From the NCBI GenBank assembly GCA_964589625.1, contig CAZPSH010000002.1:68469-132468 (forward strand): 64,000 nt of DNA, read 5' to 3'. This stretch comes from an uncultured Thermoanaerobaculia bacterium (GTDB taxonomy: Bacteria; Acidobacteriota; UBA4820; DSQY01). The notes beneath the pieces are model-generated. The model did not search any database. It was given only the letters and a program-made list of their open reading frames with translations, and was not told where the DNA came from. Positions 19,472-47,831 of this stretch are shown here, in pieces. Each line of letters opens with the position of its first letter. The first letter of the stretch is position 1. A program made the position numbers and the translations under genes.

Positions 19472-19502
19472 AGTGTAGTTTGCAGCTTGCTGCAAAGTCA
19501 AG
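19472..19502 (-). promoter_or_regulatory. candidate sigma-70 promoter (TTGACT-N18-TACACT) upstream of pilB with embedded palindrome TTGCAGC-AA-GCTGCAA
   Basis: Read on minus strand; 45-75 nt upstream of pilB start. Confidence 0.3.
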
Positions 19503-19524
19503 GGAATGACCTTCTATACCCATC

Positions 19525-19608
19525 GAGGGATTGGGGTGCCCTCGAGCCGAAGGGGAGAGGGCGCCGAGGGTGGGGTGAGGCTCCACGGGCTTTGCCCGTG
19601 GAGCGGGG
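19525..19608. repeat. GC-rich ~85-nt dispersed repeat, copy A (contains 12-bp perfect hairpin GGCTCCACGGGC-TTT-GCCCGTGGAGC)
   Basis: ~90% identical to reverse complement of ~26385..26480; translated junk ORFs on both copies share RDWGALEP...GWGEAP...PVERG. Confidence 0.7.
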
Positions 19609-19665
19609 CCCCGAAGGGAAGCCCTCGCACGGACGGGCTTCGCCTGCCGAGGGTCGCGATCTGCC

Positions 19666-20178
19666 TCAGAAGGGGGCGAAGCCGCTCTCGGACCAGAAGT
19701 CCGAGCGGATCCCGTTGTAGAGGGTCTGCAGGGCGTCGAGGTGCTGCTTCTCCCAGTCCGCCAGGAACTGGTAGAAGTCCCTCACTTCCGACTCGGTCGC
19801 GCCGCGGGCCGCGTCGCTGAAGTAGGCGATGGCCCTGGACTCGAGGGTCATGCCCACGGAAAGGACCCCCATTTCGAAATCCGCCCCCTGAGCCTGCTCG
19901 CGGAACTTGTCCGAGAAGATCGAGTCCGTAAAGGCCTTCAGATCGGGCGTCTTCCGCTCCAGGGCGAAGGCGGAGGTCCCCTTTTCCTCGTACCTCCCCA
20001 TGATGCCCTTCAAGTAGGCCTTGTGCTGGATCTCGTCGTTGGCCAGCTTTTCGAAGAGTTCCTGAACGGCCGGCTTGGTGGCCCGGTCCGCCGTCATGCT
20101 GTAGAAGGTGTACCCGTCCACTTCGATCTGGTAGGCCTTTCTCAGGACCTCCCGGATCGCATCCTTCGGTTCGGTCAT
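19666..20178 (-). CDS. rubrerythrin/ferritin-like domain protein
   Basis: 170 aa with E..E..H pairs (ANDEIQHKAY, ADWEKQHLDAL) typical of diiron ferritin-like fold. Confidence 0.65.
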   Translation of the reverse strand: MTEPKDAIREVLRKAYQIEVDGYTFYSMTADRATKPAVQELFEKLANDEIQHKAYLKGIMGRYEEKGTSAFALERKTPDLKAFTDSIFSDKFREQAQGADFEMGVLSVGMTLESRAIAYFSDAARGATESEVRDFYQFLADWEKQHLDALQTLYNGIRSDFWSESGFAPF

Positions 20179-20229
20179 CTCAGGCTCCTTCCCGGCGTAT
20201 CCTCCTCCGGGCTCCGGCGAATGCCGCGG

Positions 20230-20691
20230 TCAGGGCGCGAGGGCGTCCGTCCACGCGAAGGGCTCGGGCTTCTCGGCCGCGCGATCCGCCGGCACGTACT
20301 CCAGGGCGTGGGTGGGACAGAAGGGGACGCACTTGGGATCCCCGCCGCAAAGGTCGCACTTCTGGACGCAGTGGTAGGTTTCGTCCCAGAGCATGTTTCC
20401 GAACGGGCAGGCGGCCACGCACATGCGGCAGGAAATGCAGCGGTCCCTCGCCATTTCGATGGCGCCGGTCCGGTCGTTTCGGACGAGGGCCTCGGTGGGG
20501 CACACGGCGGCGCAGGCCGCGTCGTGGCACTGGAAACAGACGACGGGGGTCCCCAGCTCGGGGCCCCTCTTGAAGATGTTGATTCGGGTCTTGCTCGGCC
20601 TGCCCTCGCTTCCGTGGGCGAAGGCGCAGGCCAGCTCGCACTTGCCGCAGGCGATGCACCTTTCGATGACGACCCGGTAGATCCTGTCCAT
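20230..20691 (-). CDS. 4Fe-4S ferredoxin-type polyferredoxin (HycB/NuoI-like)
   Basis: Multiple CxxCxxCxxxCP motifs (CIACGKCELAC, CFQCHDAACAAVCP, CISCRMCVAACP, CDLCGG...CVPFCP). Confidence 0.75.
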   Translation of the reverse strand: MDRIYRVVIERCIACGKCELACAFAHGSEGRPSKTRINIFKRGPELGTPVVCFQCHDAACAAVCPTEALVRNDRTGAIEMARDRCISCRMCVAACPFGNMLWDETYHCVQKCDLCGGDPKCVPFCPTHALEYVPADRAAEKPEPFAWTDALAP

Positions 20692-20715
20692 GGATGGCTC
20701 CTTTGGCCCGCGGCG

Positions 20716-21489
20716 TCAGGGCGCCGTGCCGGCTCCCTCGGAAAGCTTGACGAACTGCCTCGCCATGTCGGTCCGCTTGCACGCGTCGCACAGGTCGAAG
20801 TAGGAGGACGGGACGCCCGTCCGCCCCGAGAAGTGGGCGGCCTCGTCGCGCGTGACGTGGGCCCGGCCGCACCGGAGGCAGCGGACCATCTCGAATTCCT
20901 TGCCCCAGATGGTTCTCTTGGCGTCCGAGGTCTCGTAGGGGATGCAGGAGGTCGGGCAGATTTCCGCGCAGGCGAGGCAGCCGATGCAGTCGGGCGGGGC
21001 CTCGTGGAAGGGCGGGGCGATCTCCCGTCCCGCCCCCCGATTCACGGAGGAGATGGCCGACACGCCGATGTGGTCGCAGACCCGCGTGCAAAGGCCGCAG
21101 AGGATGCAGTCCGTGGGGGCGGGATTGGGCTCGTAGGTCGTTCGCTCCAGGCCATGTTTTGCGGCCATTTGCTGGACGAGGGGCGTGTCGGGACACCGGG
21201 CCAGAAGCAGGTCGATGACGACCCTTCGCGTGGACCGCACGCGCTCCGTGTCCGTAAGGACGAGCAAGCCGTCCTCCGCGGGGAACATGCAGGACACGAC
21301 CATTTTGCACCAGCCGTCCCACTCCTTCCTCGTTACGTCCACGAGGCACATCCGGCACCCGCCCCAGGGCTCCAGGGCCGGGTGGTCGCACAGCGTGGGC
21401 ACTTCGAAACCCGCGGAGCGGATGGCATCCAGGAGGCGGGTCCCTTCGGGGACCTTCACGTTCTTGCCGTTGACGGTGAGCGTGATCAT
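20716..21489 (-). CDS. HoxU/NuoG-N-terminal-like [2Fe-2S]+[4Fe-4S] subunit of NAD(H) diaphorase module
   Basis: Start MITLTVNGKNVKV; 2Fe-2S ferredoxin fold Cys (CDHPAL...CRMC), NuoG-type CxxCxxxC...C clusters; ~257 aa; ATGA overlap with upstream gene; the 875-aa ORF in this frame is antisense read-through of the nuoF-like gene. Confidence 0.75.
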   Translation of the reverse strand: MITLTVNGKNVKVPEGTRLLDAIRSAGFEVPTLCDHPALEPWGGCRMCLVDVTRKEWDGWCKMVVSCMFPAEDGLLVLTDTERVRSTRRVVIDLLLARCPDTPLVQQMAAKHGLERTTYEPNPAPTDCILCGLCTRVCDHIGVSAISSVNRGAGREIAPPFHEAPPDCIGCLACAEICPTSCIPYETSDAKRTIWGKEFEMVRCLRCGRAHVTRDEAAHFSGRTGVPSSYFDLCDACKRTDMARQFVKLSEGAGTAP

Positions 21490-23387
21490 GGGGCGCCTCC
21501 TGTCCCCGAAGCCGCGGCGAGCTCGCGCTTGGGGAAGAACCTCACGGCGTCGGTGGGGCAGACCGTGTAGCAAGCGCCGCAGGAGATGCACTTGCCTTGA
21601 TGGATGACGTGAAGGGCCTTCTTCTCGCCCGTGATGGCGTCTACGGGGCAGGCCCGCGCGCAGGAGCCGCAGCCGTTGCAGGCCTCGGCGACGATTTCGT
21701 AGGCCGTGAGGTCCCGGCAGATTCCGGCCGGGCAAGCCTTGTGCTCCGCGTGGGCCATGTATTCGTCGCGGAAGTACCGCAGGGTCGAGAGGACGGGGTT
21801 GGGGGCGGACTTGCCGAGTTCGCACAGGCTGCCGAGCCGCATCCCCTCCGATAGCCGCTCGATGCGCCCGATGTCCCCGGGGACGCCACGGCCGGCGACG
21901 AGGCCGTCGAAGATGGCCTTCATCTGCTTGAGGCCCTCCCGGCAGGGGACGCACTTTCCGCAGGACTCCTCCATGAGGAAGGAAAGGAAGTAGCGGGCCA
22001 CGTCCACCATGCACGTCCGGTCGTCCATGACGATCATGCCGCCGGAGCCCATCATGGAGCCTGCCTCGGTGAGCTTCTCGTAGTCCACCGGGTAGTCGAG
22101 GTGGGACTCGGGAAGGCACCCTCCCGAGGGACCGCCCGTCTGGACCGCCTTGAAGGGCCGGTCCCCCAGGATCCCGCCTCCGATGTCGTAGATGATGTGG
22201 CGCAGGGTCGTGCCCATGGGCAGTTCGATGAGCCCCGTGTTCTTGACCTTGCCGACGAGGGAGAAGGCCTTCGTCCCTTTGGACTTGGCCGTGCCCATGG
22301 AGGCGAACCAGTCGCCCCCTTTGTGGAGGATGGCCCCCACGTCGGCCCAGGTCTCCACGTTGTTGAGGACCGTGGGGCAGTCGAAGACGCCCCGGTCCGT
22401 GGCGTGGACGTATTTCTGCCGGGGCTCGCCCGTCTTGCCCTCGATGGAGCGCATGAGGGCGGAGGACTCCCCGCAGACGAAGGCGCCGCCCCCGCGGGAG
22501 ATCCTCACGTCGAAATCGAATCCGGTTCCGAGGATGTTCTCCCCGAGAAGCCCTCGCCGCCGGGCCTGCTCGATGGCCAGCGTGAGGTGGACGACGGCCA
22601 GCGGGTACTCGTCGCGGACGTAGATGTACCCCTCGTGAGCGCCGATGGCGAAAGCGCCGATGACCATGCCCTCGAGTACCGAATGGGGGTCGCCCTCCAT
22701 GATGGAGCGGTCCTTGAAGGCTCCGGGGTCGCCCTCGTCGCCGTTGCAGAGGACGAACTTCCTCTCGCCCTTCGCCTTGCGGGCGGCCTTCCACTTGCGG
22801 GCCGTTTGGAAGCCGGCGCCCCCGCGGCCCCGCAGGCCGGAGCGCTCGACCTCCTCGATGACCTTCTCCGGGGTCAGGTCGAAGAGGGCGCGGACGAGGC
22901 CGGCGTAGGCCCCGTGGGCCAGCGCGTCGTCGAGGTCGGCCGGGTCCACCTTCCCGATGTTCCGCATGGCGACCCGCGTCTGGTTCTTGTAGAAGGGGAC
23001 GTCGCCGTACTTCTCGACGGCCTTCTTGGTGACCGGGTCCTTGTAGAGGAGCTTGGACAAGGCCCCGCCGCCGCCCGTCGCCTTGTCGAGGATTTCGCCA
23101 ACGTGCTCCGGTTTGACCTTCGTGTAGAGGATGCCCTCGGGCTGGATGACCACCAGCGGGCCCTTTTCGCAGAAACCGTGACAGCCCGTCTTCTTGGTGA
23201 ACAGGCCCACGGAGGCCGGTAGCCCTCGGGACTCGACCTCCTTCTGGAAGGCCTCCGCCACGCCCTGGCTCCCGTTGGCCAGGCAGCCCGTTCCGCAGCA
23301 GACGAGCACCTCGATCTTCCGCCCATCGGCCGCCCGGCGGCACGCCGCGACGGCCTCCTCGAACCGGGCCCTGGAGTCAATGCGCAT
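21486..23387 (-). CDS. NuoF/HoxF-like NAD(H)-binding FMN/[4Fe-4S] subunit (51-kDa family) with N-terminal thioredoxin-like and C-terminal 2x[4Fe-4S] domains
   Basis: GGGAGFQTARKW (FMN site), GDEGDPGAF (NADH site), ESCGKCVPCREG (N3 cluster), C-terminal CNGCGSCARACP / CISCGACYTVCP. Confidence 0.85.
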   Translation of the reverse strand: MRIDSRARFEEAVAACRRAADGRKIEVLVCCGTGCLANGSQGVAEAFQKEVESRGLPASVGLFTKKTGCHGFCEKGPLVVIQPEGILYTKVKPEHVGEILDKATGGGGALSKLLYKDPVTKKAVEKYGDVPFYKNQTRVAMRNIGKVDPADLDDALAHGAYAGLVRALFDLTPEKVIEEVERSGLRGRGGAGFQTARKWKAARKAKGERKFVLCNGDEGDPGAFKDRSIMEGDPHSVLEGMVIGAFAIGAHEGYIYVRDEYPLAVVHLTLAIEQARRRGLLGENILGTGFDFDVRISRGGGAFVCGESSALMRSIEGKTGEPRQKYVHATDRGVFDCPTVLNNVETWADVGAILHKGGDWFASMGTAKSKGTKAFSLVGKVKNTGLIELPMGTTLRHIIYDIGGGILGDRPFKAVQTGGPSGGCLPESHLDYPVDYEKLTEAGSMMGSGGMIVMDDRTCMVDVARYFLSFLMEESCGKCVPCREGLKQMKAIFDGLVAGRGVPGDIGRIERLSEGMRLGSLCELGKSAPNPVLSTLRYFRDEYMAHAEHKACPAGICRDLTAYEIVAEACNGCGSCARACPVDAITGEKKALHVIHQGKCISCGACYTVCPTDAVRFFPKRELAAASGTGGAP

Positions 23388-23862
23388 GGGACTTGCCCTC
23401 CTGGCCCAGGAGCTTGGGCATCTTCGCCGGCTTGGCGTTCCCGTGGTACTTGTCTCCGACGATGAGGACGGGCGCCATGGCGCAGGCCCCCACGCAGTTC
23501 ACGGTCTTCAGCGTGAATCCCATGTCGGGCGTTGTTTCGTCCGGGCCGATGGAAAGCAGGCGCTGGACCTCCTCCACGAGTTGGCCGGCGCCCCGGATGT
23601 GGCAGGCCGTGCCCGTGCACACCTTAATAAGGGTCCTCCCCTGGGGCTTGAGGGAGAAGGCCTTGTAGAAGGTGGACACGGAGAAGACCTTGGCCAGGGG
23701 TACGTCCAGGACCTCCGCCACCTTGCAGAGCACGTCGCAGGGCAGGTAGTTGTAGGCGCGGTGCACGTCTTGGAGAACCTGGATGAGGGAGGCTTCCTCC
23801 CTCGGATACCTCTCCAGGATCTCCTCCACCGGGTGGAGGTCCTGGCAGGATGCTTGGCTCAT
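23377..23862 (-). CDS. NuoE/HoxE-like [2Fe-2S] thioredoxin-like subunit (24-kDa family)
   Basis: 161 aa; Cys ligands C..C...CxxxC (LPCDVLC...CTGTACHIRGA...CVGACAMAP); ATG overlaps porG TGA stop (ATGA). Confidence 0.8.
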   Translation of the reverse strand: MSQASCQDLHPVEEILERYPREEASLIQVLQDVHRAYNYLPCDVLCKVAEVLDVPLAKVFSVSTFYKAFSLKPQGRTLIKVCTGTACHIRGAGQLVEEVQRLLSIGPDETTPDMGFTLKTVNCVGACAMAPVLIVGDKYHGNAKPAKMPKLLGQEGKSHAH

Positions 23863-24413
23863 GGCTGTCCTTCCTTCATCTCCGCGCCGAGGTCGTACCC
23901 CCTCTTCAGCGCCACGAGGTTGGCCTCGATGACCTTGGGTTTGCTGGCGAAGGTTTCCCGGATCAGGGACTCGAGTTCCTCGAGGGCCACCGCGTTGGTG
24001 GCGCCGATGTAGGCGCCCAGGGCGACCATGTTGGCCCCCTTGGGGTTCTTGAGCTCGTTGGCCACGTCGTTGGCGGGAACCTTGAGAACGCGGACGTCTT
24101 TCCTCGACGGCTCCCGGTTGATCAGGGACGAGTTGACCAACAGGAGCCCGCCCGGCCGGAGCATCGGTTCGAACTTCTCCAAGGACGGCAGGTTCATGGC
24201 CAGGACCGCCTTCGGGGATTGGATGACGGGAGAGCCCACGGGGCGGTCCGAGATGACCACCGTGCAGTTGCACGTTCCCCCGCGCATCTCGGGCCCGTAG
24301 GAGGGAAGCCAGGACACCTCCTTGCCCTGGTGCATCCCGGCATAGGCCAGCATCTTCCCGATGAGAAGGATGCCTTGTCCGCCGAAGCCCGCCATGATCA
24401 CGTCATTCTGCAT
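23859..24413 (-). CDS. porG: 2-oxoacid:ferredoxin oxidoreductase gamma subunit
   Basis: Start MQNDVIMAGFGGQGILLIGKMLA, typical POR/KOR gamma N-terminus; overlaps porB 3' end. Confidence 0.8.
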   Translation of the reverse strand: MQNDVIMAGFGGQGILLIGKMLAYAGMHQGKEVSWLPSYGPEMRGGTCNCTVVISDRPVGSPVIQSPKAVLAMNLPSLEKFEPMLRPGGLLLVNSSLINREPSRKDVRVLKVPANDVANELKNPKGANMVALGAYIGATNAVALEELESLIRETFASKPKVIEANLVALKRGYDLGAEMKEGQP

Positions 24414-25203
24414 GGCCGCTCCCCCGCCTTCCCCGTCCGAGCGGGCCGGGCGCCCGGTCCTCGCCGCCGGGGGTCTTGAAGGTCCCAAGCGGGTAGTAGG
24501 GAAGCATGTTCTTTTCCAGCCAGGCCGTGGCCTCCGCGGGAGGGATCCCCCAGTTCGTGGGGCACGTGGAGAGGATCTCCACGAGGGAGAAGCAGACGTT
24601 CTCCTTCTGGTACCGGAAGGCCGTCCGGAGCATCTCCTTGGCCGCCACCGCGTGGAGGGGCGAGTGGACGGAGGCCCGCGCCACGTAGGCCGGCGTCCTC
24701 AGCGTGCTGACGAGTTCGGCCACGCGAATGGGCCATCCGGCCAGGTTCACGTCCCGGCCCAGGGGGCACGTGGTGGCCACCTGGCCGGGCATGGTGGTGG
24801 GTGCCATTTGTCCGCCCGTCATGCCGTAGATCGCGTTGTTCACGAAGACCACGGTGACCTTCTCGCCTCGGTTGGCGCAGTGGATGATCTCGGCCATCCC
24901 GATGGAGGCCAGGTCGCCGTCGCCCTGGTACGAGAAGACGATGAGGTCGGGGCGGGCCCGTTTCACGCCCGTGGCCACCGCCGGCGCCCGGCCGTGGGAG
25001 GCCTCGTGGAAGTCCGTGGCGAAGTAGTTGTAGGCGAGCACGGAGCATCCGACGGGTGCGATGCCCACGGTCCGTTCCCGCAGGCCCAATTCGTCGATGA
25101 CTTCCCCCACGAGCCGGTGGATGACGCCGTGGGTGCACCCGGGGCAGTAGTGGGTCGTCACATCCGCGAGGGCTTCGGGTCGCCGGAAGACGGTCTCAGC
25201 CAT
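24403..25203 (-). CDS. porB: 2-oxoacid:ferredoxin oxidoreductase beta subunit (TPP-binding)
   Basis: CPGCTHG Cys motif, GDGD...N TPP-binding motif (SYQGDGDLASIGMAE...NNAIYGMTGGQ). Confidence 0.85.
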   Translation of the reverse strand: MAETVFRRPEALADVTTHYCPGCTHGVIHRLVGEVIDELGLRERTVGIAPVGCSVLAYNYFATDFHEASHGRAPAVATGVKRARPDLIVFSYQGDGDLASIGMAEIIHCANRGEKVTVVFVNNAIYGMTGGQMAPTTMPGQVATTCPLGRDVNLAGWPIRVAELVSTLRTPAYVARASVHSPLHAVAAKEMLRTAFRYQKENVCFSLVEILSTCPTNWGIPPAEATAWLEKNMLPYYPLGTFKTPGGEDRAPGPLGRGRRGSGHAE

Positions 25204-26290
25204 GGGCCACCTCCCCGGACCGGCCGGCGGCGATGGCCCGGATCTGTTCGGCCACCTCCTCGGGCGCGGCGAGCATCCCGCCCTGGCGTCCGAAGAAGTG
25301 AACGGGCCGCGTTCCCAGGAGGGCGAGCTGCACGTCCTCCACCATTTGGCCGGTGGAGAGCTCCACGACGAGCACGGCCTTGGCCTTCTGGGCGGCGCGG
25401 CGGACCTGTTCGTAGGGGTAGGGGAAAAGCGTTACGGGGCGGACCATGGCGGCCTTCACGCCTTCCGCGCCCAAGTCCTCGATGGCCGTGGAGCAGACCC
25501 TCGCCACGGTCCCGTAGGCCACCACGAGGACGTCGTAGTCCGCCTCGGTGCCGTATTCGACCCAGCGGACCTCGTCGCGGACCATGGCCGCGTACTTGGC
25601 TTGGAGCTTCTGGTTGTGGTGCTCGAGAACCTGCGGGTCCAGGAAGAGGGAGTTGATGATGTTGGTGGCCCTGCCGCCCTTGCAACCGGTGGCCGCCCAG
25701 TCCTTGGGGGGGAGGGGCTTGCAGGGCACCCGGCCGGTCCGAAATTCCACGGGCTCCATCATCTGGCCGATGAGGCCGTCTCCGAGCACCATGACCGGAT
25801 TCCTGTAGTAATCCGCCAGGTCGAAGGCGTCCTGGACCAGGTCCGCGGCTTCCTGGACCGACCAGGGCGCCAGCACCAGAAGCCTGTAGTCGCCGTGGCC
25901 GCCTCCCTTCGTGGCCTGGAAGTAGTCCGCCTGGCTCGGGAGGATGCCTCCCAGCCCGGGGCCGGCGCGCATGATGTTCACGACGACGCAGGGAAGCTCG
26001 CTTCCGGCGAGGTAGGAAATTCCTTCCTGCATGAGGGAGATCCCCGGGGAGCTCGAGGAGGTGAACACCCGCTCCCCGCTCCCCGCCGCCCCGTACAGCA
26101 TGTTGGAGGCCGCCACTTCGCTCTCCGCCTGCACGAAGGTGCCGCCCACCTGGGGCAGGCGGTGGGACATGTACTCGGGGATTTCGTTCTGGGGCGTGAT
26201 GGGGTAGCCGAAGAACAGCCGGCATCCCGCCTGGATGGCGGCCTCACCGATGGCCTCCGAGCCCTTCATCAGTTTCTTGGCCATGGCCAC
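25196..26290 (-). CDS. porA: 2-oxoacid:ferredoxin oxidoreductase alpha subunit
   Basis: 364 aa, KGSEAIGEAAIQAGCRLFFGYPITPQNEI N-terminus typical of POR/KOR alpha; stop overlaps porB start. Confidence 0.85.
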   Translation of the reverse strand: MAMAKKLMKGSEAIGEAAIQAGCRLFFGYPITPQNEIPEYMSHRLPQVGGTFVQAESEVAASNMLYGAAGSGERVFTSSSSPGISLMQEGISYLAGSELPCVVVNIMRAGPGLGGILPSQADYFQATKGGGHGDYRLLVLAPWSVQEAADLVQDAFDLADYYRNPVMVLGDGLIGQMMEPVEFRTGRVPCKPLPPKDWAATGCKGGRATNIINSLFLDPQVLEHHNQKLQAKYAAMVRDEVRWVEYGTEADYDVLVVAYGTVARVCSTAIEDLGAEGVKAAMVRPVTLFPYPYEQVRRAAQKAKAVLVVELSTGQMVEDVQLALLGTRPVHFFGRQGGMLAAPEEVAEQIRAIAAGRSGEVAHG

Positions 26291-26384
26291 GCTCCTTCAG
26301 TCGCGAATTCCGCGGTCAAACGGCTCTTCCTTACGAGAAGCGCCCGCGTACACCGCGGAATACAAGTCTTCTCCTCGACGGGAA

Positions 26385-26876: not shown

Positions 26877-27641
26877 TCAGCCCACCACGAAGAGCGGCCC
26901 GACGGTCCTCTGGGTGCGGTCGGACTCGAAGGGCGGCTTCACGAATCTCCTCACGGGAAGCACCGGACAGCCCGGGTTTCCCTTCTCCACTTCCTCCGCC
27001 AGCTCCAGGGGCGCGGCCACGGCACGGACCTCCAAGGAGAGGCTCCTGCCGACCTCCCGGGCCAGACGCAGGCCGTCCAGGATCACCTCCGCCGTGGATT
27101 CGCCCATGAGGTGGGTGTTGGAGAGAAGCCCCGTGGTCTTCAGCCGGGACGTCGCCTCGATCTCGCGGGCCATGGACACGGCCGAGGTCACATCGGGGGT
27201 GAAGGGCCTGCGAAAGTTGAGCACGATCAGGAGGTCCGTCTCCGACTCCGGAACGGCGTCGCTCACGGAGGCCAGCGCACGGACCCCCGTTTCGTCGCCC
27301 CCCGCGTCGATGAGAACCTTCCGGGTCGGGTCTTGGAGCCGCGTCCGGACCTGGGGCAGGACAATGGGCAGATCGGAGGAGAAGTACTCGCCCATGGGAG
27401 CCACCAGTTCCACGTTCGCGGCGGACAGGATGTCCCGTGCGGACCTCGACCGCAGGTACGGCTTCACCACGTCCAGGTCGAGGAGGGACACGGGAAACCC
27501 GGCGCCCGCCAGTTCCATGGCGGCGGACAGGGTGATCTCCGTCTTGCCGCTGCCGAAGTGGCCGCACAGGATCGTGACCCGTCGCGAAAACACGCGGGCG
27601 AAGGTTTCGCCCGCCGGACGGACTTTTAGAACCTGCCCCAT
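26877..27641 (-). CDS. P-loop NTPase of unknown function
   Basis: Start MGQVLKVRPAG; Walker A GHFGSGKTE; ~254 aa; upstream 84 codons of ORF are Pro/Arg-rich junk. Confidence 0.45.
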   Translation of the reverse strand: MGQVLKVRPAGETFARVFSRRVTILCGHFGSGKTEITLSAAMELAGAGFPVSLLDLDVVKPYLRSRSARDILSAANVELVAPMGEYFSSDLPIVLPQVRTRLQDPTRKVLIDAGGDETGVRALASVSDAVPESETDLLIVLNFRRPFTPDVTSAVSMAREIEATSRLKTTGLLSNTHLMGESTAEVILDGLRLAREVGRSLSLEVRAVAAPLELAEEVEKGNPGCPVLPVRRFVKPPFESDRTQRTVGPLFVVG

Positions 27642-27807
27642 GCGGGCCGCGCGCGATTCGTCCACCGTCGTGTGCCTCTCCGGCCGGAAAGCGGCCTCGA
27701 AGAAGGTGTCCAATATAGTCCGCGGCGGCCCAGGGTCAAAAACCGCGCGCGGGTCCCCATGGGCAGGAAGGGCCAAATGCCCCACACGCCGTCCGGCTTT
27801 GGCTCTG

Positions 27808-29097
27808 TTAGCGGGGCGGGGCGGGAAGGGTGAAGGAGAGGACGAATCCCCGGCCCTCCCGGGCGATCCCCGCCAGGACTCGGGTGGCGCCATCCGAGCG
27901 GAAGGCGCACAGGCAGGTGGCGACGGCCTCCAACGGGGGCGAGATCCAGACCCTCTCCCAGATCCTTCCGTCGACCAGGTCGAAGGCTTCGATCCGGGGG
28001 GAAGTTCCCCCCGTGGAAACGAAAAGGGTGGAACCGGCGGCGGCCAGGGCGCCGGCGCCTTCCGCGGGCCCTGGGATTCGGGCCAGGTCGGAGCCGCGCA
28101 CGGCCGTCGTGTTCCCGCCGGGATCCAGCAGGAGAAAGTAAGTGCCGCCCGGTCCCACGGCTTTCACCATCTGGACGAAAGAGCCCAAGTCCCTTCCGGC
28201 GTAGTCAAAAAGGAGGAACGCTCCGGCCTCGGCGTCCCACTGGGCGGAGAGGAATTGGGACGTCCGTGGGCCCATGGGGAATCCTTCGATCTTGCCGCCC
28301 GGCGCGAACATCCCGCCGCTTCCCCTCGCGAACCAGCGGCTATCGGATGTTTCCGGTTCCAAGAGGGCAAGCCGCGCAGGGTCGGCCTCGTCCCAGACGA
28401 GGCCGGCGGCGCCAGGCGAGGCCTCTTGGTTCCAGCGTTGCAGGACCGTTCCGTCGGCCGGGTCCGTGCGGAGGAGGTCCCGGTTTCCCAGAATCCAAAG
28501 CCGGGCCGGAGGCCCTGCTTCCCAGGCCAGTGCCCGGATGGGCCCTTCGATGGTGGCGATGACCGAACCCGTCTCCGCGGGCGCCGCGGTTCGGGTCGGG
28601 GCCCGGAAAACCAGGGGGGGCCGGATCTCGAAGCGGAGGGTGGCCAAGCCCGGGCCTTTTCGAAGTTCCACGTGGAGGGACCTCAGGGCGCCCTCCGGGG
28701 TGCTTTCCGGGGACAGCCAAACGAGGGAGGAAAACGAAGCGGGATCGAGCTGAGAGTAGGCTTCCGGCGCCCCGCCCGCGGTGACGCCCAGTTCGGCGAG
28801 CGTCAGCGCCTTGGGAAGGCTCCTGGCCAGGTCCGCGCCCAAGGTCGCGAGGCTGGGCTCCTCCGGGTTCCAACCGACGGCCGTGGGGTTCGATTGGGTT
28901 CCGTTGATCCGACCGAGCAGTTCCCTCGCCAGGGCGCGGGCTACGGCAGGGGTTCCCCCCTCGGAGCTCAAAACGGTGGAAGGCGCCTCGGGTCTTTCGG
29001 CGGGCGGAGTAGAGGGAGGAATTCGGACGCCGGCCGGGGCGCACCCGAGGAGGAGCGCGGAGGCGGCCGCCGCGATCCATGCGGAGGCGGGCTTCAC
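27808..29097 (-). CDS. lipoprotein, unknown function (possible beta-propeller)
   Basis: Signal peptide + lipobox ALLLGC; 429 aa; no recognisable catalytic motif. Confidence 0.45.
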   Translation of the reverse strand: MKPASAWIAAAASALLLGCAPAGVRIPPSTPPAERPEAPSTVLSSEGGTPAVARALARELLGRINGTQSNPTAVGWNPEEPSLATLGADLARSLPKALTLAELGVTAGGAPEAYSQLDPASFSSLVWLSPESTPEGALRSLHVELRKGPGLATLRFEIRPPLVFRAPTRTAAPAETGSVIATIEGPIRALAWEAGPPARLWILGNRDLLRTDPADGTVLQRWNQEASPGAAGLVWDEADPARLALLEPETSDSRWFARGSGGMFAPGGKIEGFPMGPRTSQFLSAQWDAEAGAFLLFDYAGRDLGSFVQMVKAVGPGGTYFLLLDPGGNTTAVRGSDLARIPGPAEGAGALAAAGSTLFVSTGGTSPRIEAFDLVDGRIWERVWISPPLEAVATCLCAFRSDGATRVLAGIAREGRGFVLSFTLPAPPR

Positions 29098-30479
29098 GGG
29101 GTCCTCCCCGCGTACTCCGAGAGGCGGCGCGCCACGTCACGCTCGTCGCCTGGCAAGAGCGTGCGAAGGTGGATCAAGATCCGGCCTTCCGACGTCTGGG
29201 TCACCACCGGCGGGTCGCCGCCCGTGCGGAGGTGGCGTTCGAGGCTTTCGGGGTCCCCGAACCGGGGGACCACGGCCATGGCGGGAGAGGGAAGGGCCGT
29301 GAGGGGCGCCGAACCGGCTCCCGTGCGGCCCTCCGCTTCGACCACCTCCAGGCGGAACCGGCCGGGGCAGGCCTTCGACACGCGGCGCAGGAGCGCCCTG
29401 GCCCGCCGTCTCAGCTCCCCCGCCTCCCTGTCGAGGAGGGCCAGGGCCGGGACCTCCTTTCGCCTCCCCCGGCGGTACCGGTCCACCACCGCGGCGAGCA
29501 GCGAGTAGGTCACCTTGTCCACCCGGAGGGCCCTCAAAAGGGGGTTGGAGCGGAAGGCCGACACGCGTTCCGGAGCCACCAGGAGGATTCCCGCTTGGCA
29601 GGCCCCGAAGAGCTTGTCGCCGCTGAAGCAGAGCGCGTCGGGGCGGGCGGCGAGGGCCGAGGTCACCGGCGGCTCATCGGGCAGGCGCGAGCCGGCGACG
29701 GGGTCCACCAGGCCCGATCCAAGGTCGAAGCCGACGGGCATACCCAGCTCGCGGCCCAACTCCACGAGGCTCTCCAGGCTCACTTCTTCCGTGAAGCCGA
29801 GGATCCGGTAGTTGGACGTGTGGACCTTCAGCATGAGGGCGCTCTGGGGGCCGGCGGCGCGACGGTAGTCGGAGAGGCGCGTGCGGTTGGTGGTGCCCAC
29901 CTCCCTCAAGAGGGCCCCCGAGGCCTTCATGACCTCGGGCATGCGGAAGCCCCCCCCGATTTCCACGAGTTCGCCCCGGCTCACCAGGGTCTCGCGGCCC
30001 GAGGAAAGCGTGTTCAGGAGGAGCAGGGTGGCCGCCGCGTTGTTGTTCACGACCACCACGCCGTACTCCGTGTCGAACAGGCCCTGAAAGGCGCGCTCCA
30101 GCGCAGCGTCCCGGTGGCCACGGTGGCCGGCTTCCAGGTCCATTTCCAGGTCCACGTATCCCCCGAGGACCCCTTCGATTTCCCGAAGGAGCGGCCGGGA
30201 AAGGGGGGCCCTGCCGAGGTTTGTATGGAGGACAACGCCCGTGGCGTTGACGACCCGGCGGAGGGGCGGGCGGAAGGTCTCCGCCAGACGGAGGGCGGCC
30301 TCTCGGATCACGTCTTCGGGGCGGGGGACCTCGCCTGAATTCCTCCAGCGCGCCACGCCGCCATCGAGAGTCTGGCGCAGAGCCCGCTTCGTCTCGGCAG
30401 GGCCGTACTCCCGGGCCAGGTCCAGGGCGGCCGGCTCGGCAAGGAGCCGATCCATCCGGGGCGGGCGTTCCGGGATCAT
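29094..30479 (-). CDS. selA: L-seryl-tRNA(Sec) selenium transferase
   Basis: Start MIPERPP (ATGA overlap with upstream HAD gene); 461 aa; PLP-lysine region FSGDKLFGACQAGIL and SelA-like N-terminal architecture. Confidence 0.75.
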   Translation of the reverse strand: MIPERPPRMDRLLAEPAALDLAREYGPAETKRALRQTLDGGVARWRNSGEVPRPEDVIREAALRLAETFRPPLRRVVNATGVVLHTNLGRAPLSRPLLREIEGVLGGYVDLEMDLEAGHRGHRDAALERAFQGLFDTEYGVVVVNNNAAATLLLLNTLSSGRETLVSRGELVEIGGGFRMPEVMKASGALLREVGTTNRTRLSDYRRAAGPQSALMLKVHTSNYRILGFTEEVSLESLVELGRELGMPVGFDLGSGLVDPVAGSRLPDEPPVTSALAARPDALCFSGDKLFGACQAGILLVAPERVSAFRSNPLLRALRVDKVTYSLLAAVVDRYRRGRRKEVPALALLDREAGELRRRARALLRRVSKACPGRFRLEVVEAEGRTGAGSAPLTALPSPAMAVVPRFGDPESLERHLRTGGDPPVVTQTSEGRILIHLRTLLPGDERDVARRLSEYAGRTP

Positions 30480-31183
30480 GGCACTCCCCCCTCTTCCACA
30501 GCGTCGCAGAGCGCCCCGGGGTCTCCCAAACTGGGGAGGAGTGCGTCGGGGGCCAGCGCCCCCAAGACATCGAGAGGGGTGTGGCCCGTGGCGACGGCGG
30601 CGCACCGAACGCCGGCGGTCCGGGCCGCGCGAATGTCCCTCTCGGAGTCCCCGACGATCCAGACGGAGGCCGGAGGGAATTCCTTCCCGAAGTGCCGGCG
30701 GCACCGTTCCAGGGCCACGGGAACGAGGCCGGGGCGGTCAACGGCGTCTTCCCCGAAGGCGCCCAGCAGGACGCTTCCTCCGTTCCGGAAGAAGGCGTCG
30801 AGGCCGGCGGCGCGGAGTTTCACGAGGGCCCCGCCGCGCACGTTCCCCGTGAGAAGGGCCAGGTGGTGCCCACGCTGGAGACAGCGCTCGAGGGCTGCAG
30901 GGAGGCCATCGCAGCGGCACTGGTCTGACGGGGGAAAGGGCTCGCTCGAGAGGAGCTCCACGTATGCCCCGAGAAGACGTTGGAGGACCAGCGGGTCGGG
31001 CGTCACGTTCAGCGAGGAGAGCGTCCTGCGGGCGATCTCCACGTCGAGCAGCCCGTCGTAGGAGAAAGGGGCCGGGTCCACGGGGGCGCCGAACACCGTC
31101 TCGAGAGCAGCGAGAAAGGACTTGCGGCCCAGACCGAGGGGCCGCACGAGGGTGCCGTCCACGTCGAAGAGCAGAAGGGCCAT
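30476..31183 (-). CDS. HAD-superfamily hydrolase (phosphoglycolate phosphatase-like)
   Basis: Motif I FDVDGTL at N-terminus, motif IV VGDSERDIRAARTAG. Confidence 0.7.
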   Translation of the reverse strand: MALLLFDVDGTLVRPLGLGRKSFLAALETVFGAPVDPAPFSYDGLLDVEIARRTLSSLNVTPDPLVLQRLLGAYVELLSSEPFPPSDQCRCDGLPAALERCLQRGHHLALLTGNVRGGALVKLRAAGLDAFFRNGGSVLLGAFGEDAVDRPGLVPVALERCRRHFGKEFPPASVWIVGDSERDIRAARTAGVRCAAVATGHTPLDVLGALAPDALLPSLGDPGALCDAVEEGGVP

Positions 31184-31502
31184 GGAGCCTCCCCGAAACC
31201 CAGTCTAGCCGGAGGAGTCCGCGACGGCAAATGGGGGATCGGCGCCGGAGGCGCCTGTGGGGCCTTTGGGGAAGCGGGGCAACAGCCTGCCAGTGTGGCG
31301 AGTCAGAAGTTCGATGGCGAATGGACCTTCGCCACACGGCGGGTGGGGGTCCGGGGGAGGCGCCGCCGCGCCTTCCCCGGTAGGGCGCGCGGGGAGGGCA
31401 GGCGGATTGCGCGGCCTGAGGCCGCCGTCCGCAAGCCGCATGGCCTTCCCCGCGAAGTGTCCCGAGGCGGACGTATCGTGCGTGAAGTTCCGATTCGGGA
31501 CA

Positions 31503-33437
31503 CTAGAAGGCCTCCTTGCGGAATTCCTCGGCGGTCGTCAGCCCCTCCCGGATGGCCTTGAGGGCCCGCTGGCGAAGGGAGATCATTCCCGCCTTCTGGG
31601 CCTCCCGCTCGAGGGTCTTTTCGGCGGGTCCCTTGGCGAGCGCCTTCCGGAAAGCGGGCGAGGGCGTTAGCAGCTCAAAGAGGGCCATCCGGCCCCTGTA
31701 GCCGATGCCCGAGCAATCGCCGCAACCCTGCCCCTGCAGGCCGTGGCCGAGGTCCCTGGACTCCTCCGGGGTGAGGCCCATCATCCGAAGCGAATTCTCG
31801 GAAAAGGTGACGGGTGCGGCGCACAGCGGGCAGTTTTTCCGGAGCAGCCTTTGGTTCAGGACGAGCAGGAGGTGCTGGGCCAGGTCCGCCGGGGAGAGCC
31901 CCGAGGAGATCACCTGGGCGAGGGCGCGGACGGCGCCGGCCGATTCGAGGGTCGCGACCACGAGCATCTGGCCCATGAGTTTCTGGACCTGGCCGATCAT
32001 GGAAGCGGTGTCCAGGACGTCGGCCAGAACGCAAACGTCCGGCTGGATGCTGGAGAGCGCCTTCATCGTGGTGAGGGTGGCCTCCGCGTCCTGGGTGTCC
32101 CCCAGGGAAATCTGCGAGACGTTGGGGACCGGGCAGACGCTCTGGGCCTCGATGCTGATGACCTTTCGACCGCTCTCCGCGGCCAGTTCACTCATGACGG
32201 CGTAGAGGGTGGTGGTGCACCCGTGGAACAGGGGCGCGCTGATGAGAACCAGCCCGCGCTTGGCGCCGAGGGCCGCACGGAGCGAGACCATGTCGTCGGC
32301 GGGGATCCCGAGTTGCTCGAAGGACTTCAGGAAGGTGTCGCGGTTGATGATCTTCAAGGAGATGTTCTCTCCGGACCGCGTGGGGAGGCTGTGGGCGATC
32401 ACGTCGTAGCGGTGCTCCCCCGAACGCATGACCACGCGTCCGGCCTGGGGGCGATCGGACACCGCCGTATCCAGCCTCAGGAGCTTCTTGAGCTCCAGCG
32501 TCAGCGTCTCCTGAAGCTCGCGCCCCACGGGTTTGGCCTTGTAGAGAAGCCCGTCGATGCGGAGGTGGATGGAAACCTCCTCCTCGCGGGGCTCCACGTA
32601 GAGGTCGGAGGCGCCTCGGGCGATGGCCTTGCGGATGAGGTCCGTGGCCAAGCGCGGTCCGCGAGCAGAATCCTTGGAGGATCCGGAGGCGTCGCCCTCG
32701 CCGCCGGCTTGGAAGGGAAGGAGGAAGGACTCGATCTCTTCCCGGGGGGCCTGGACGGCCAGGACCTGTGAGGCCGTGGCGTTTTGAACGAATTCCACGG
32801 TCTCTCCGTCGGCTGGATTGGCCATGGCGAGCGTGAGGAGGTCCCGTCCGCTCAAGTGTTCCCGGCTCACAGGAACCACCAGGCGCCGCAGGCACTCGGC
32901 GGCGCCGATGGAAGAAACGAGCATGGGGTCGGGAGGGGTATCTCGGAAGGAGATCTGCATCACCGATCGCTGGCTGGACAGGAAGGCGTCGAGGGTGCCC
33001 TGGGTCAGATGCCCCATCGCCACCAGGATCTCGCCGATCTTCCCGCCCTCCTGCCGCTGGCGCTTCAGGGCCTGAAGGAGCTGATCCGAGGTGATGACCC
33101 TGGCGCGGATCAGGGCCTCTCCGAGTGGGCCCCGCGCGCCGGCCAGCATCTCCCGATCCGTTACGACCGACTCCGGCGCACCGGCCCAGAACCGTTCGTG
33201 GTACTCCTCCGGCGCGGCGCAAAAGCACTGGAGGCAGAAGGGGCAGACCTTGGTGGGCCGGTTGGGGTTGCACGAGCACCACACGGCCGTCAGGGCGTCG
33301 TAATCCCCGAGGCAGTTCCAACACCGGACCGGATGTTCCGCCACGTCGACCTCCCAGATCTGGCAGAAGTGTAGGGCATGGCGCCCGGCTTCCGCAACCG
33401 TCCGAATCGGCCCGAAGGCTCGGTTGACCGCCTCCAA
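31503..33437 (-). CDS. GspE/PilB-family secretion ATPase homolog with degenerate catalytic motifs (pseudo-ATPase), N-terminal Cys-rich Zn-finger-like region and MshEN/T2SSE_N-like domain
   Basis: Walker A region reads [19 protein letters not shown] (consensus GLILVTGPTGSGKSTTLYA: Lys and Gly lost); Walker B/Asp box VLADVLDTA; His box ATLESA (His->Glu); retains C-terminal CPLC...CGDC; N-term [24 protein letters not shown] resembles c-di-GMP-binding MshEN motif. Confidence 0.75.
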
Positions 33438-44758: not shown

Positions 44759-44888
44759 GCCCAGGGAATCAAGGATCTCAATGGGCGGCCCGGGAGAACC
44801 CCGGGCCGTCCTTTTTCGTACCCCTGCGAGGCTGTGCTAAGGTGACACCCGGCCCACAGGGAAATCGGACCCTCGAACGGAGGCCACC

Positions 44889-47831
44889 ATGAGAAGGCGC
44901 AACGGTTGGGTGATCGGGGCGGTCCTCGCGTGTTTGGCGAGCGCGGCGGAAGGGGCTTACCCGGAACAGAAGCTGCGGTTCGGACTGCGGGTGGGGCCGG
45001 AGCAGTGGACGGCCGCCGGGGAGGCGCTGCGGCTGGCGCCGGCCGATCCGGCCAACCCGGTTGGCCTCACGATCCAAATTCCCGCGGAATGGACCCAGGC
45101 CCCGGATTGGGGAGCCCTGGACGGCGTCTTGGAGGCGGCGAGGGCGGCGAACGCTAGGCTCTGCGTCACCACGGCCATTCCCGCGGAGCCGGCATCGCCC
45201 GAGACCCTGAAATACCTGGCCACCCTCTCCTCCCACGCCGGGGAGGAGGCGGACGCGATGGGACTCTCTTTCGCCCCGTCGGAATTCTCGGAGGCCCTCC
45301 TGTCGGAGCCCGACCAGCTGGCTCTGGCCCTCAAGCGCGTGACGGCTTCCTTGAGGGGGGGAAGCGGCGCGAAGATTCTGCTGGGGGAGGTTTCCCCGGC
45401 CGACCTGCCTCTCTTGGAACCCCTCTACGAGAGGGACTTCCGAGCCTACGTGGAGGGGTATTCGTCGGCGACCACGGGGAGCGCGGGCGAACCGTCGGAG
45501 GCCGTCGTGTCCTTTCTCCAGGGGTACCACCTGGGGGCGCCCTTGCTCCTGCACTTGCCCCGCACGACGAATCCCATCGCCGCCCAAATCCTCGTCCTCG
45601 CCTCGGCGAGCCGGGACGTGACGTACACGGATGTGGAGGCCGTGGACCCCGCTTCCGCCTGGAGTGGGCTCCTGGACCTCCGCGCGCGGCTCTCGCCGGG
45701 GACGGCGCCCGGCTTCGGCGCCATGGCCACGCAGATCACCGGGCCCGAGGGGGCGAGACCCGATGTGGGCCTGATCCACCTCCTCGACGCGGATCGCATG
45801 GCCCAGTCGATGGTGCTCGTGCCCCGCGTGGCGGGCTCTCGCCCCGGAGTCCTCCGGGTCCGGCTCCCGACGGCGGACATCACGGACCCGATCCTGTACA
45901 TCCTTCCGGGGTGCGAGCGCCGGGACGTGGGGTACACGGCGGACCAGAAGAAGCAGGAGACGGCCCTGGAGGTGCCCTGGGAGGGCCGGCCCCTTCTCCT
46001 CTCCTTCAACCGTCTTCGGACGGGCACGGTGGGCCAAGAGGAACTGACGGTCACCAGCGTCTACCGTCTTCCCGTGGAGGTGATCCTGGCGCGGCACCAG
46101 GCCGTGAGCCAGCCCCAGGAGATCTTCCTGGACAACTACGTGCGCGACGCGCAGGTGGACTACCACTTCCGCCTCCCGGGGGGCACCGGGAGCTTGGACG
46201 TCACCTTTCTCAACACCTTCTTCTTCGAGAAGGGGGCCGGGGCCCGGTGGGTCCAGAACCAGCTCCTCGTGAACGGAGTGGCCTGGAAGGGCAAGACCCT
46301 GCCCGAACTGCCCATCATTGAGCCCGAGAAGGTCAACGCCCTACCCCTGGGATTGACCCTGGGCCGGGATTACACGTACCGCTACCTGAAGGACGATGTG
46401 GTGGAGGGGGTGACCTGTTTCGAGGTGGAGTTCGTCCCCGCCGAGGACGCCCGGGGCAGCCTCTACACCGGCAAGGTCTGGATCAGCCACGATTCCTACC
46501 AGAAAATCCGCATGTCGGTCCGCCAGGTCGGGCTCAAGGAGCCCCTCGTCAGCAACGAGGAGACCGATTTCTACGCTCCGTACCAGGCCCCGGACGGGAG
46601 GTCCTTCTGGCTCCTGTCCCGGGTTCGCGGACAGCAGATCTTCTCCGTCGTCGGCCAGAACGTGGTGGGGGAGAGGGAAATCAACTTCGGGGCGCCGCGC
46701 CTGAACGACGCGGGCTTCCGGGCGTCGGTGGCCGAGGCGGAGGCCAGCGACCGGCGCATCCTCCAGGAGACCGACCAGGGCCTCAAATACCTCGAGAAGC
46801 AGGCCGACGGAACCCGTAAGATCCAGTTGGACCAGAAGACGGGCCGCCTCTTCGCGGTGGGCGGATTCTATTACGACAAGAGCCTCGACTTTCCGCTCCC
46901 CCTCGTGGGGGTCAACTATTTCGACTACGACTACAAGAAGACGAAGACCCAGGTGAACCTGCTGGTCGCGGGCGCCGTGAACAGCCTGGCGGCGTCCAAG
47001 GTCAATCTCCTGCCCAAGGTGGACGGGAGCCTGAACACCGTCCTCTTCGCCGTCCCCTTCCAGGACCGCCTCTACCGCGGCGGCGTGGAGGACGAGGGCC
47101 AGAAGGTGAAGATCCTGAGGGAGTCCGTGTCCGTGGGCGCCGGCTGGCGCTTTCAGGAATTCTCCAAGCTCTCCCTGGACCTCCGCGGCAGGTATCTCCG
47201 CTTCTCGCGCACCTCCGACACCGCCCCCGGGTTCGTCCTCCCCGAGGACCACTTCGACTGGGAGGCCGACGTTTCCTACGACTTCTCCTGGAAGGGCTGG
47301 TCCCTGGGCTCGAGTTACGAAATGCACAGAAGGAGCCGGTGGGAGCCGTGGGGGCTTCCCGGAAGCCCGAGGGACGTCTCGGCCTTCAAGGACTACGTCC
47401 AGTGGAGCGCCGCCTTCAGCAAGGCCTTCTACCTTCCCAAGTTCCAGAAGGTGTCGGCCTCCATCTCCTGGCTCGACGGGAAGGACCTGGACCGCTTCAG
47501 CCGCTACGAGTTTACCTACCTCGGCCGTCGATCCCTGGCCGGCTTCGCCGGGAGCGGGATCCGCTTCGACCGGGGCTCCATCGCCGCCCTCGCCTACCAG
47601 TTCAACCTGGCGCAGGTGGTGCGCTTCGGCGTCTCCCTCGAGCACGCGCGCATCCAGCCCATCAAGAGGCTGGGAACGTGGCAGAACCACACCGGGGTGA
47701 GCCTCTCGGGCTCCGTGGCGGGCCCCTGGCAGACGCTGTGGACGCTGGATGCGGGCTACGCGCTCCGCAGCGACGTGGGTCCGGTGGAGAGGGACTATAC
47801 GGTGGCCCTCGCCATCCTCAAGCTCTGGTGA
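44889..47831 (+). CDS. large secreted/outer-membrane protein with C-terminal beta-barrel signature (terminal ...AILKLW)
   Basis: Signal peptide MRRRNGWVIGAVLACLASAAEG; 980 aa; alternating amphipathic strands in last ~300 aa; C-terminal aromatic. Confidence 0.55.
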   Translation: MRRRNGWVIGAVLACLASAAEGAYPEQKLRFGLRVGPEQWTAAGEALRLAPADPANPVGLTIQIPAEWTQAPDWGALDGVLEAARAANARLCVTTAIPAEPASPETLKYLATLSSHAGEEADAMGLSFAPSEFSEALLSEPDQLALALKRVTASLRGGSGAKILLGEVSPADLPLLEPLYERDFRAYVEGYSSATTGSAGEPSEAVVSFLQGYHLGAPLLLHLPRTTNPIAAQILVLASASRDVTYTDVEAVDPASAWSGLLDLRARLSPGTAPGFGAMATQITGPEGARPDVGLIHLLDADRMAQSMVLVPRVAGSRPGVLRVRLPTADITDPILYILPGCERRDVGYTADQKKQETALEVPWEGRPLLLSFNRLRTGTVGQEELTVTSVYRLPVEVILARHQAVSQPQEIFLDNYVRDAQVDYHFRLPGGTGSLDVTFLNTFFFEKGAGARWVQNQLLVNGVAWKGKTLPELPIIEPEKVNALPLGLTLGRDYTYRYLKDDVVEGVTCFEVEFVPAEDARGSLYTGKVWISHDSYQKIRMSVRQVGLKEPLVSNEETDFYAPYQAPDGRSFWLLSRVRGQQIFSVVGQNVVGEREINFGAPRLNDAGFRASVAEAEASDRRILQETDQGLKYLEKQADGTRKIQLDQKTGRLFAVGGFYYDKSLDFPLPLVGVNYFDYDYKKTKTQVNLLVAGAVNSLAASKVNLLPKVDGSLNTVLFAVPFQDRLYRGGVEDEGQKVKILRESVSVGAGWRFQEFSKLSLDLRGRYLRFSRTSDTAPGFVLPEDHFDWEADVSYDFSWKGWSLGSSYEMHRRSRWEPWGLPGSPRDVSAFKDYVQWSAAFSKAFYLPKFQKVSASISWLDGKDLDRFSRYEFTYLGRRSLAGFAGSGIRFDRGSIAALAYQFNLAQVVRFGVSLEHARIQPIKRLGTWQNHTGVSLSGSVAGPWQTLWTLDAGYALRSDVGPVERDYTVALAILKLW

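Follow-up and report, generated by a model that had tools for sequence, protein, structure and literature searches.

The extension ATPases of type IVa pili, as represented by Myxococcus xanthus PilB (3jc8), Geobacter PilB (5tsh) and Thermus PilF (5oiu/6f8l), consist of an MshEN-type N1D domain followed by an N2D domain and a C-terminal domain (CTD) and carry a tetracysteine zinc site. The N-terminal domain of Vibrio cholerae MshE (MshEN, 5htl) is a receptor for cyclic di-GMP (c-di-GMP) with a tandem motif of 24+5+24 residues, a four-helix bundle and an MshEN_C subdomain, and in NfrB-type c-di-GMP-activated glycosyltransferases (NF008411, NF012033) MshEN serves as a portable input to a non-motor output. 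Here we describe a gene in a stretch of 64,000 nucleotides from an uncultured Thermoanaerobaculia bacterium (contig CAZPSH010000002.1, positions 68,469 to 132,468; this whole stretch is referred to as the window, and all coordinates are given in its numbering) that encodes a PilB-like pseudo-ATPase. Its product shares with PilB/PilF the order N1D-N2D-CTD, the tetracysteine zinc site and the fold, with MshE the tandem motif, the four-helix bundle and MshEN_C (predicted here), and with the NfrB-type enzymes the use of MshEN away from motor function, the motif regions being alignable. Unlike PilB/PilF, it is without the catalytic motifs, carries an extra 72-residue N-terminal Cys module and is encoded outside a pil operon. 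The c-di-GMP motif forms the extreme N-terminus of MshE and PilB but is preceded by a folded module in the present protein, for which binding is predicted, and in contrast to the NfrB-type proteins there is no glycosyltransferase, MshEN being joined to a dead motor and the Cys module instead. The closest parallel in logic, by analogy, is provided by FimX-type degenerate enzymes (PMC11656802), in which a dead enzyme fold has likewise been kept as a c-di-GMP-responsive regulator, but the folds are unrelated (GGDEF/EAL versus a RecA-like motor) and FimX acts on the pilus motor, whereas for the present protein a link to PilB would be hypothetical. We consider it somewhat better than an even bet, with a probability of roughly 0.55, that the protein arose from PilB, the extension ATPase of type IVa pili, and serves in the cytoplasm as a non-catalytic, c-di-GMP-responsive signalling or adaptor protein.

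A first-pass annotation of the window had placed the gene at 31503-33437, and an open reading frame (ORF) of 644 amino acids (aa) from an in-frame TTG does lie exactly there on the minus strand, but this upstream TTG is probably unused and the gene start is probably at 33344. Approximately 65 full-length orthologues (48-91% identity, 604-646 aa) have N-termini of the form 'MAE[HY]..CWNC', and the GTG at 33344 is preceded, with a spacer of 5 nt, by a Shine-Dalgarno-like GGGAGG (33350-33355, minus strand). The gene is therefore taken as 31503-33344 (minus strand, 613 aa, stop codon 31503-31505), most likely starting 31 codons inside the longer ORF, and residue numbers refer to the protein read from this GTG. 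The G+C content of the window is 63-72%, and the closest relatives of the pseudo-ATPase are found in metagenome-assembled Acidobacteriota. Pfam detected T2SSE (7e-49) and MshEN (6.6e-9) domains, and the solved structures matched by sequence were those of PilF, PilB and GspE (1e-59 to 1e-40), with Thermus PilF, Myxococcus PilB and Geobacter PilB as the top relatives (1e-59 to 1e-53). The best NCBIfam model was that of PilB (TIGR02538, 239.1 bits, which is below its equivalog cutoff of 675.65), with the GspE model scoring 209 bits, and an alignment to the PilB of the window itself is collinear, with 27% identity. By homology it is a member of the T2SSE / PilB-GspE superfamily (PF00437) with PilB as its nearest relative. 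The labels PilB, GspE or TadA that are now used by the source databases should not be applied to it; annotation as PilB is unsuited because Walker A, Asp box, Walker B, His box, equivalog score and operon context all fail.

The interpretation of the product as a pseudo-ATPase of the PilB/GspE family, already proposed in the first-pass annotation, is borne out by the T2SSE match together with the losses of catalytic motifs in alignments to PilB/PilF. These were read residue by residue against solved PilB and PilF, the window's own PilB and 17 canonical PilBs. In the pseudo-Walker A (32202-32243, on the minus strand like all features of this gene; canonical VTGPTGSGKTNTLY, with the core VTGPTGSGKT) GPTGSGKT has become APLFHGCT, with Lys changed to Cys and two Gly lost, and in the pseudo-His box (31932-31970; canonical GHMVLSTLHTNDA) TLHTNDA has become TLESAGA, with His changed to Glu, so that the substitution of the Walker A Lys and Gly and of the His-box His had been read correctly. 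The loss of the Walker B/Asp-box glutamate had been claimed as well, which is accurate for the pseudo-Walker B (32010-32045; canonical DPNVILVGEIRD), where VGEIRD has become LADVLD and the catalytic Glu is replaced by Asp, but only in part for the pseudo-Asp box (32112-32156; canonical TAEDPVE...), where TAEDPVE has become SIEAQSV and the first Glu is kept while the remainder is lost. A scan of the whole protein for GxxxxGK[ST] revealed no canonical Walker A elsewhere. In ASCE ATPases such substitutions abolish hydrolysis and probably phosphate binding too.

The N2D domain of the motor core (residues 227-340, 32325-32666) was recognized by Pfam, alignments and AlphaFold (AF2), with RLPQDGR changed to DRPQAGR, and the C-terminal RecA-like domain (residues 341-613, 31506-32324) is intact in fold by Foldseek and catalytically degenerate. 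As had been noted before, the tetracysteine zinc motif (C505-x2-C508 ... C541-x2-C544, 31713-31832) is retained and aligns to CRDC...GCPTC of the window PilB. The full-length AF2 model has a pLDDT of 86.7 with disorder only at the linker of residues 214-226 (32667-32705), which is non-conserved (column identity 0.23) and has a pLDDT below 50, and in Foldseek comparisons the N2D+CTD core superimposed on the crystal structures of PilF (5oiu) and PilB (5tsh) with TM scores of 0.91-0.92 and a root-mean-square deviation of 2.3-2.6 Å. The PilB fold is thus predicted to be intact without the residues needed for ATP hydrolysis.

Calculated against the closest orthologue (L092, 91% identity), dN/dS was 0.087 overall and 0.07 for the Cys module, 0.07 for MshEN, 0.06 for N2D and 0.09 for the dead CTD. 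Among 62 full-length orthologues the mean column identity reached 84% in the pseudo-Walker A, corresponding to the 99th percentile of 14-residue windows of the CTD, and 85% in the pseudo-Asp box. To judge from these values, the former active site is remodelled and then frozen, not released from constraint.

When the distribution was scanned with each GTDB species represented by a single genome, 80 loci were recovered, nearly all of them labelled Acidobacteriota and belonging to Thermoanaerobaculia (including Thermoanaerobaculum aquaticum), Aminicenantes, Vicinamibacteria, Polarisedimenticolia and Marinacidobacterales. Thermoanaerobaculum aquaticum is a named and presumably cultivable species, and its locus in this set stems from a metagenome-assembled genome assigned to that species. 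By length, the members of the family form classes of about 610-620, 531 and 692-722 aa, in which the Walker A lysine and the His-box histidine are lost (with P0161 as the exception for Walker A), the Walker B glutamate is lost in nearly all members, and the pseudo-P-loop [AS]P-x3-G-x2-TT-x-Y as well as the tetracysteine are common property. Loss of the catalytic residues spans all module-bearing subfamilies, from five acidobacterial classes, with a single partial exception: the divergent module-bearing relative P0161 (639 aa) has kept GPANAGKT including the Walker A lysine but lost Asp box, Walker B and His box; it may represent an intermediate stage of evolution, or it may bind nucleotide and not hydrolyse it. 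In the homology search, the matches up to P0079 contained the Cys module in every case with the N-terminus covered (five N-truncated or fragmentary matches, P0062 and P0065-P0067 among them, end short of the module region) and a canonical Walker A in none, while those from P0080 on were without the module and almost all canonical PilBs (GPTGSGK[ST]); P0098, P0104 and P0105 are module-less matches that are also without a canonical Walker A. Module and pseudo-ATPase state are thus tightly coupled. The predicted loss of catalysis is ancient and clade-wide. At two loci, L064 and L083, the pseudo-ATPase ORFs are short (462 and 417 aa) and each is adjoined by a second PilB-like tblastn match; these are probably the same gene split by a frameshift or assembly error and not an adjacent pilB.

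The MshEN_N c-di-GMP motif, as defined by Wang et al. (PMC5013675), occupies residues 73-125 (32970-33128; four helices in the AF2 model) and is followed by the alpha/beta subdomain MshEN_C at residues 126-213 (32706-32969; Pfam PF05157, 6.6e-9, and AF2). It scored 60.1 bits with NCBIfam NF053729 (cutoff 38) and exhibits the exact layout of 24+5+24 residues, with motif I at P73-96, the spacer RQEGG at 97-101 and motif II at K102-125. The position-3 glycines of both motifs (G75 and G104) and both glutamines (Q96 and Q125) are kept, and five of the six leucine positions (L74, L89, L93, I103, L118 and L122) hold Leu, the sixth (L39 of the motif) being changed to Ile. According to Wang et al. the Gly and hydrophobic positions matter most, with the position-3 Gly being essential and the six Leu each contributing more than 10-fold; the glutamines touch the backbone, and changes of Arg9 cost less than 5-fold (PMC5013675). 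Deviations in the target comprise Arg9 to Pro, Arg38 to Lys and the turn Gly18 to Arg (Lys, Arg, His or Asn in the orthologues). The relaxed pattern of the same authors, [RKPN]hGxxhhxx[GAS]hhxxxxhxxxhxx[QNKRYWST], covers neither motif, position 10 of motif I being Arg and position 11 of motif II His; motif I falls outside it because of its substitutions, and most of the orthologues match with motif II only. The first-pass annotation had described this region as matching the MshEN-type c-di-GMP motif, an assignment upheld by the NF053729 score; it had quoted motif II correctly and left the deviating motif I unmentioned. Binding of c-di-GMP by the pseudo-ATPase is predicted and likely. The other subfamilies and the stand-alone module-MshEN proteins scored 47-60 bits with NF053729. 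A loss of the motif in the ~531-aa subfamily, suggested by a regular-expression scan, was overturned by the NCBIfam hidden Markov model (53-60 bits); this subfamily is without the MshEN_C subdomain.

The N-terminal Cys module (residues 1-70, 33135-33344) was modelled as a small fold of short beta-hairpins bearing the Cys pairs, followed by two helices at residues 46-54 and 58-70 (AlphaFold of the module: pLDDT 89, pTM 0.72). Its cluster C8,C11/C23,C25/C34,C37/C40,C42 (CWNC-x11-WCSC-x8-CPFCLQCFC, 33219-33323), which the first-pass annotation had singled out as an extra module, is real and nearly invariant and is proposed as a two-metal site. The target matches the family pattern C-x2-C-x11-C-x-[C/D/H]-x8-C-x2-C-x2-C-x-C, followed by helices of the type xAPxxYxxxFWxxAP, and invariant columns are C8, C11, W22, C23, K32, C34, P35, F36, C37, C40, F41, C42, F52, A56 and P57. 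Position 25, the fourth ligand, is only Cys, Asp or His across the family, all of them metal ligands, which leads to a count of eight ligands in four pairs. Neither Pfam nor NCBIfam contains a model of the module, and Foldseek against the PDB returned no significant match (best E 2.5, TM 0.34), the weak matches being binuclear zinc domains of the FYVE, IBR and RING types. These cross-brace zinc fingers share eight ligands in four pairs and short hairpins with the module, yet without a significant structural or sequence match. From the eight conserved ligands and the C/D/H variation we infer a putative cross-brace arrangement with two zinc ions.

The most informative point, which the first-pass annotation had missed, is that the Cys module is mobile, occurring also in receiver proteins, in GGDEF proteins and in MshEN proteins that stand alone. 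Queried by itself, the 72-aa module gave no match in a word-indexed homology search (no candidate shared three 5-residue words), and an exhaustive search with a module profile over 1.84 billion cluster representatives yielded 323 proteins at E<=1e-3, 184 of these at E<=1e-10. A Pfam domain census covering 110 of the 323 found REC (receiver) in 52, T2SSE in 31, MshEN in 31, GGDEF in two, PALP in two, and EAL and HEAT in one each. Proteins of about 210 aa with the architecture module-REC form a large family that the sources name merely 'CheY-like', and further architectures include long proteins with two module-REC units, GGDEF-EAL-module-REC, PALP-module-REC, module-GGDEF (e.g. P0180) and module-MshEN without an ATPase (about 220 aa). 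The module is always positioned directly N-terminal to a switch or enzyme domain. A nucleic-acid-binding role was considered for the module, but its net charge (about -2 for the pseudo-ATPases, +1.4 for the small proteins) is uninformative in this respect. No second copy was found within the window. The module appears to be a mobile domain that is new to the databases consulted, and neither PilB-family pseudo-ATPases nor a Cys module combined with REC or MshEN were described in the searchable literature, with subscription journals outside its coverage.

Two further observations concern module-bearing proteins away from the pseudo-ATPases. At loci L089 (7001-7630) and L090 (7001-7627) module-REC proteins of about 209 aa are encoded in a conserved signalling cluster with the order SSF solute symporter, module-REC, PAS/GAF hybrid histidine kinase, REC and Hpt-REC-GGDEF, which is a separate signalling system sharing the Cys module. 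The top-scoring profile match, P0106 (3179 aa), is a giant Cys-repeat protein with 38 partial matches that comprise the CPFCxxCFC half only, the full eight-ligand pattern being unmatched.

The PilB body of the protein is complete (MshEN N1D, N2D, RecA-like CTD and tetracysteine), and the Cys module is fused directly before the MshEN motif. If it acts as a non-catalytic adaptor, as we favor, c-di-GMP would bind the MshEN four-helix bundle just after the module and would alter how a partner is engaged by the module, or by the PilB-like ring or scaffold, a part that phosphorylation would play in the module-REC paralogues. The module would most likely be a metal-stabilised docking domain, possibly with a redox- or metal-sensing function, that brings different signal-handling domains to one common target, and the dead motor body would offer a surface for oligomerisation or PilB-type docking, while pilus assembly would not be powered by the pseudo-ATPase itself. 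Because the contexts of the module are those in front of a phospho-switch, a cyclase and a c-di-GMP receptor, we infer that the sole role fitting all of them would be that of a docking, dimerising or sensing element.

Several points weigh against an adaptor of this kind. The docking, sensing and dimerising roles of the module are inseparable by sequence, and no operon partner is conserved across the subfamilies. Motif I, as read from the alignment, deviates at Arg9 (to Pro) and at the turn Gly18 (to Arg/Lys). In PilF GSPII-A, N-terminal capping and inter-subdomain contacts can abolish binding despite a perfect motif (PMC12002112), and by analogy the 72-residue N-terminal extension, which occupies the exact site of these capping effects, might do the same here.

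The pseudo-ATPase gene is divergent from icd, purH and lolA and is followed on the same strand by genes for a HAD hydrolase and then selA, with no terminator-like site between the three. This order recurs in the closest subfamily, with HAD, selA or icd kept at 16-18 of the 80 loci, while the neighbours in divergent subfamilies are glycine-cleavage, haem-synthesis or cytidylate-kinase genes. HAD/selA was considered as a conserved operon partner and rejected, since the order is confined to the closest subfamily and looks like backbone synteny. In the window the stop-to-stop frames of selA (29094-30737) and the HAD hydrolase gene (30476-31204, both minus strand) overlap by about 260 nt; the called genes at the orthologous loci L001, L002 and L092 overlap by 4 nt only, so that selA of the window probably starts at a point far within its long ORF.

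Among the alternatives, the one that survives best is a specific role as brake or decoy for the machinery of type IV pili. It is a special case of the adaptor reading, in which the dead copy of PilB would attach to the PilM/PilC platform, or assemble together with PilB/PilT, in a c-di-GMP-dependent manner and so block or tune extension, and we regard it as possible, though doubtful. Consistent with such a role, PilB is closest among both the equivalog models (TIGR02538 at 239 bits versus GspE at 209) and the structures, and a canonical type IVa pilus cluster pilB-pilT-pilC-pilS-pilR (12210-19781, minus strand) is located ~12 kb from the gene. It comprises pilB (17712-19781), pilT (16557-17711), pilC (15325-16542) and the genes for a PilS-like kinase (13585-15324) and a sigma-54 PilR-like regulator (12210-13823). 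In the window PilB, GPTGSGKT is intact and the MshEN motif I (RLGEMLLKVGLISQQQLQEALALQ) agrees with the relaxed consensus; the relaxed-pattern scan did not pick up its motif II. Given this motif I, the real motor itself may bind c-di-GMP. In the metagenomic relative L002, pilB-pilT-pilC directly follow selA, three genes downstream of the pseudo-ATPase, and a nucleotide-free or Walker A-mutant PilB signals to exopolysaccharide (EPS) production in Myxococcus, as reviewed in PMC11656802. Against a brake, however, neither pilT nor pilC was found within about 6 kb at any of the 80 genomic loci, L002 remaining the one exception among relatives, and the two extra PilB-like matches at L064 and L083 are probably fragments of the same gene. 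The neighbourhoods around divergent subfamilies are unrelated, and with no family-wide partner there is therefore no neighbourhood support for a dedicated link to pilus genes. Furthermore, module-MshEN proteins without the ATPase body exist, so what the module-MshEN unit does at its core does not depend on the motor-like part. The suggestion of the first-pass annotation that the protein is a decoy or partner specifically for the PilB/PilT encoded 12 kb away thus finds no backing at a locus set among the housekeeping genes icd, purH, HAD and selA; the protein may act on the pilus machine in trans, but the neighbourhoods give no indication of this.

Between selA and pilB, the window contains a minus-strand block (19666-26296) with genes for a rubrerythrin, a 4Fe-4S ferredoxin, a Nuo51-like flavoprotein and a 2-oxoacid:ferredoxin oxidoreductase, together with further ORFs up to about 29 kb. 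The difference between the window and L002 suggests that related genomes differ here by a rearrangement or an insertion.

A redox, oxygen or metal sensor, in which the module binds an Fe-S cluster or is a zinc-thiolate switch and provides the input to REC, GGDEF or the MshEN-scaffold, would be compatible with an adaptor but strikes us as unlikely. The C-x2-C-x2-C-x-C part resembles the ligand spacing of Fe-S proteins, the module stands N-terminal to GGDEF in P0180, which is the usual position of a sensor, and genes of anaerobic-type metabolism (POR, rubrerythrin) are near the gene in many hosts. However, a ligand position open to C, D or H and CxxC/CxC knuckles that are paired on beta-hairpins are seen more typically in structural zinc sites, and the weak fold matches point to binuclear zinc fingers of the FYVE, IBR and RING types. 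An active nucleoside triphosphatase (NTPase) that uses non-canonical residues, or a protein with nucleotide as an allosteric ligand, is very improbable: the high conservation of the pseudo-P-loop [AS]P-x3-G-x2-TT-x-Y and the GPANAGKT of the divergent P0161 can be cited in its favor, but the target and nearly all relatives have together lost the Lys of Walker A, the Glu of Walker B, the Asp/Glu of the Asp box and the His of the His box, and the P-loop Gly is replaced by bulky Phe, Tyr or His. A decaying paralogue or pseudogene in progress, as might be proposed from the degeneration of all catalytic motifs, is effectively refuted by dN/dS values of 0.06-0.09 in every domain, reading frames that are intact in dozens of species of several classes, and the conservation of the degenerate motifs themselves.

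Elsewhere in the window, a plus-strand ORF of 1622 aa (57353-62221) with at least six PKD repeats and a third-position G+C of 0.95 probably encodes a large surface or secreted protein. The ORF at 53525-55312 (plus strand) combines a ParA/MinD-like P-loop domain (AAA_31/CbiA) with a C-terminal HTH_25 domain of the RodZ type, which is an unusual fusion. Four long ORFs with coding-like codon bias, 44841-47831 (plus strand, 996 aa), 7451-9196 (minus strand, 581 aa), 1167-2813 (plus strand, 548 aa) and 26877-28163 (minus strand, 428 aa), had no Pfam match at E<=1e-3 to 1e-4.

Beyond the single protein, we tentatively propose that the ancient, phylum-wide pseudo-ATPase clade could be part of a larger and hitherto undescribed signalling system, defined by a new two-metal Cys domain that would dock receiver domains, diguanylate cyclases and c-di-GMP receptors (stand-alone MshEN, or MshEN with a dead motor) onto a common target as a local c-di-GMP/phosphorelay hub. 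Secretion and pilus motor ATPases are usually viewed as enzymes, and this clade presents the PilB scaffold as reused for signalling. The module is found in hundreds of protein clusters beside the two main types of bacterial switch domains (REC and c-di-GMP domains), and its ligand or partner, once defined, would annotate many acidobacterial proteins now called 'CheY-like' or 'GspE/PulE family'. Acidobacteriota are a dominant and poorly studied soil phylum, and the module family provides a concrete handle on local c-di-GMP signalling.

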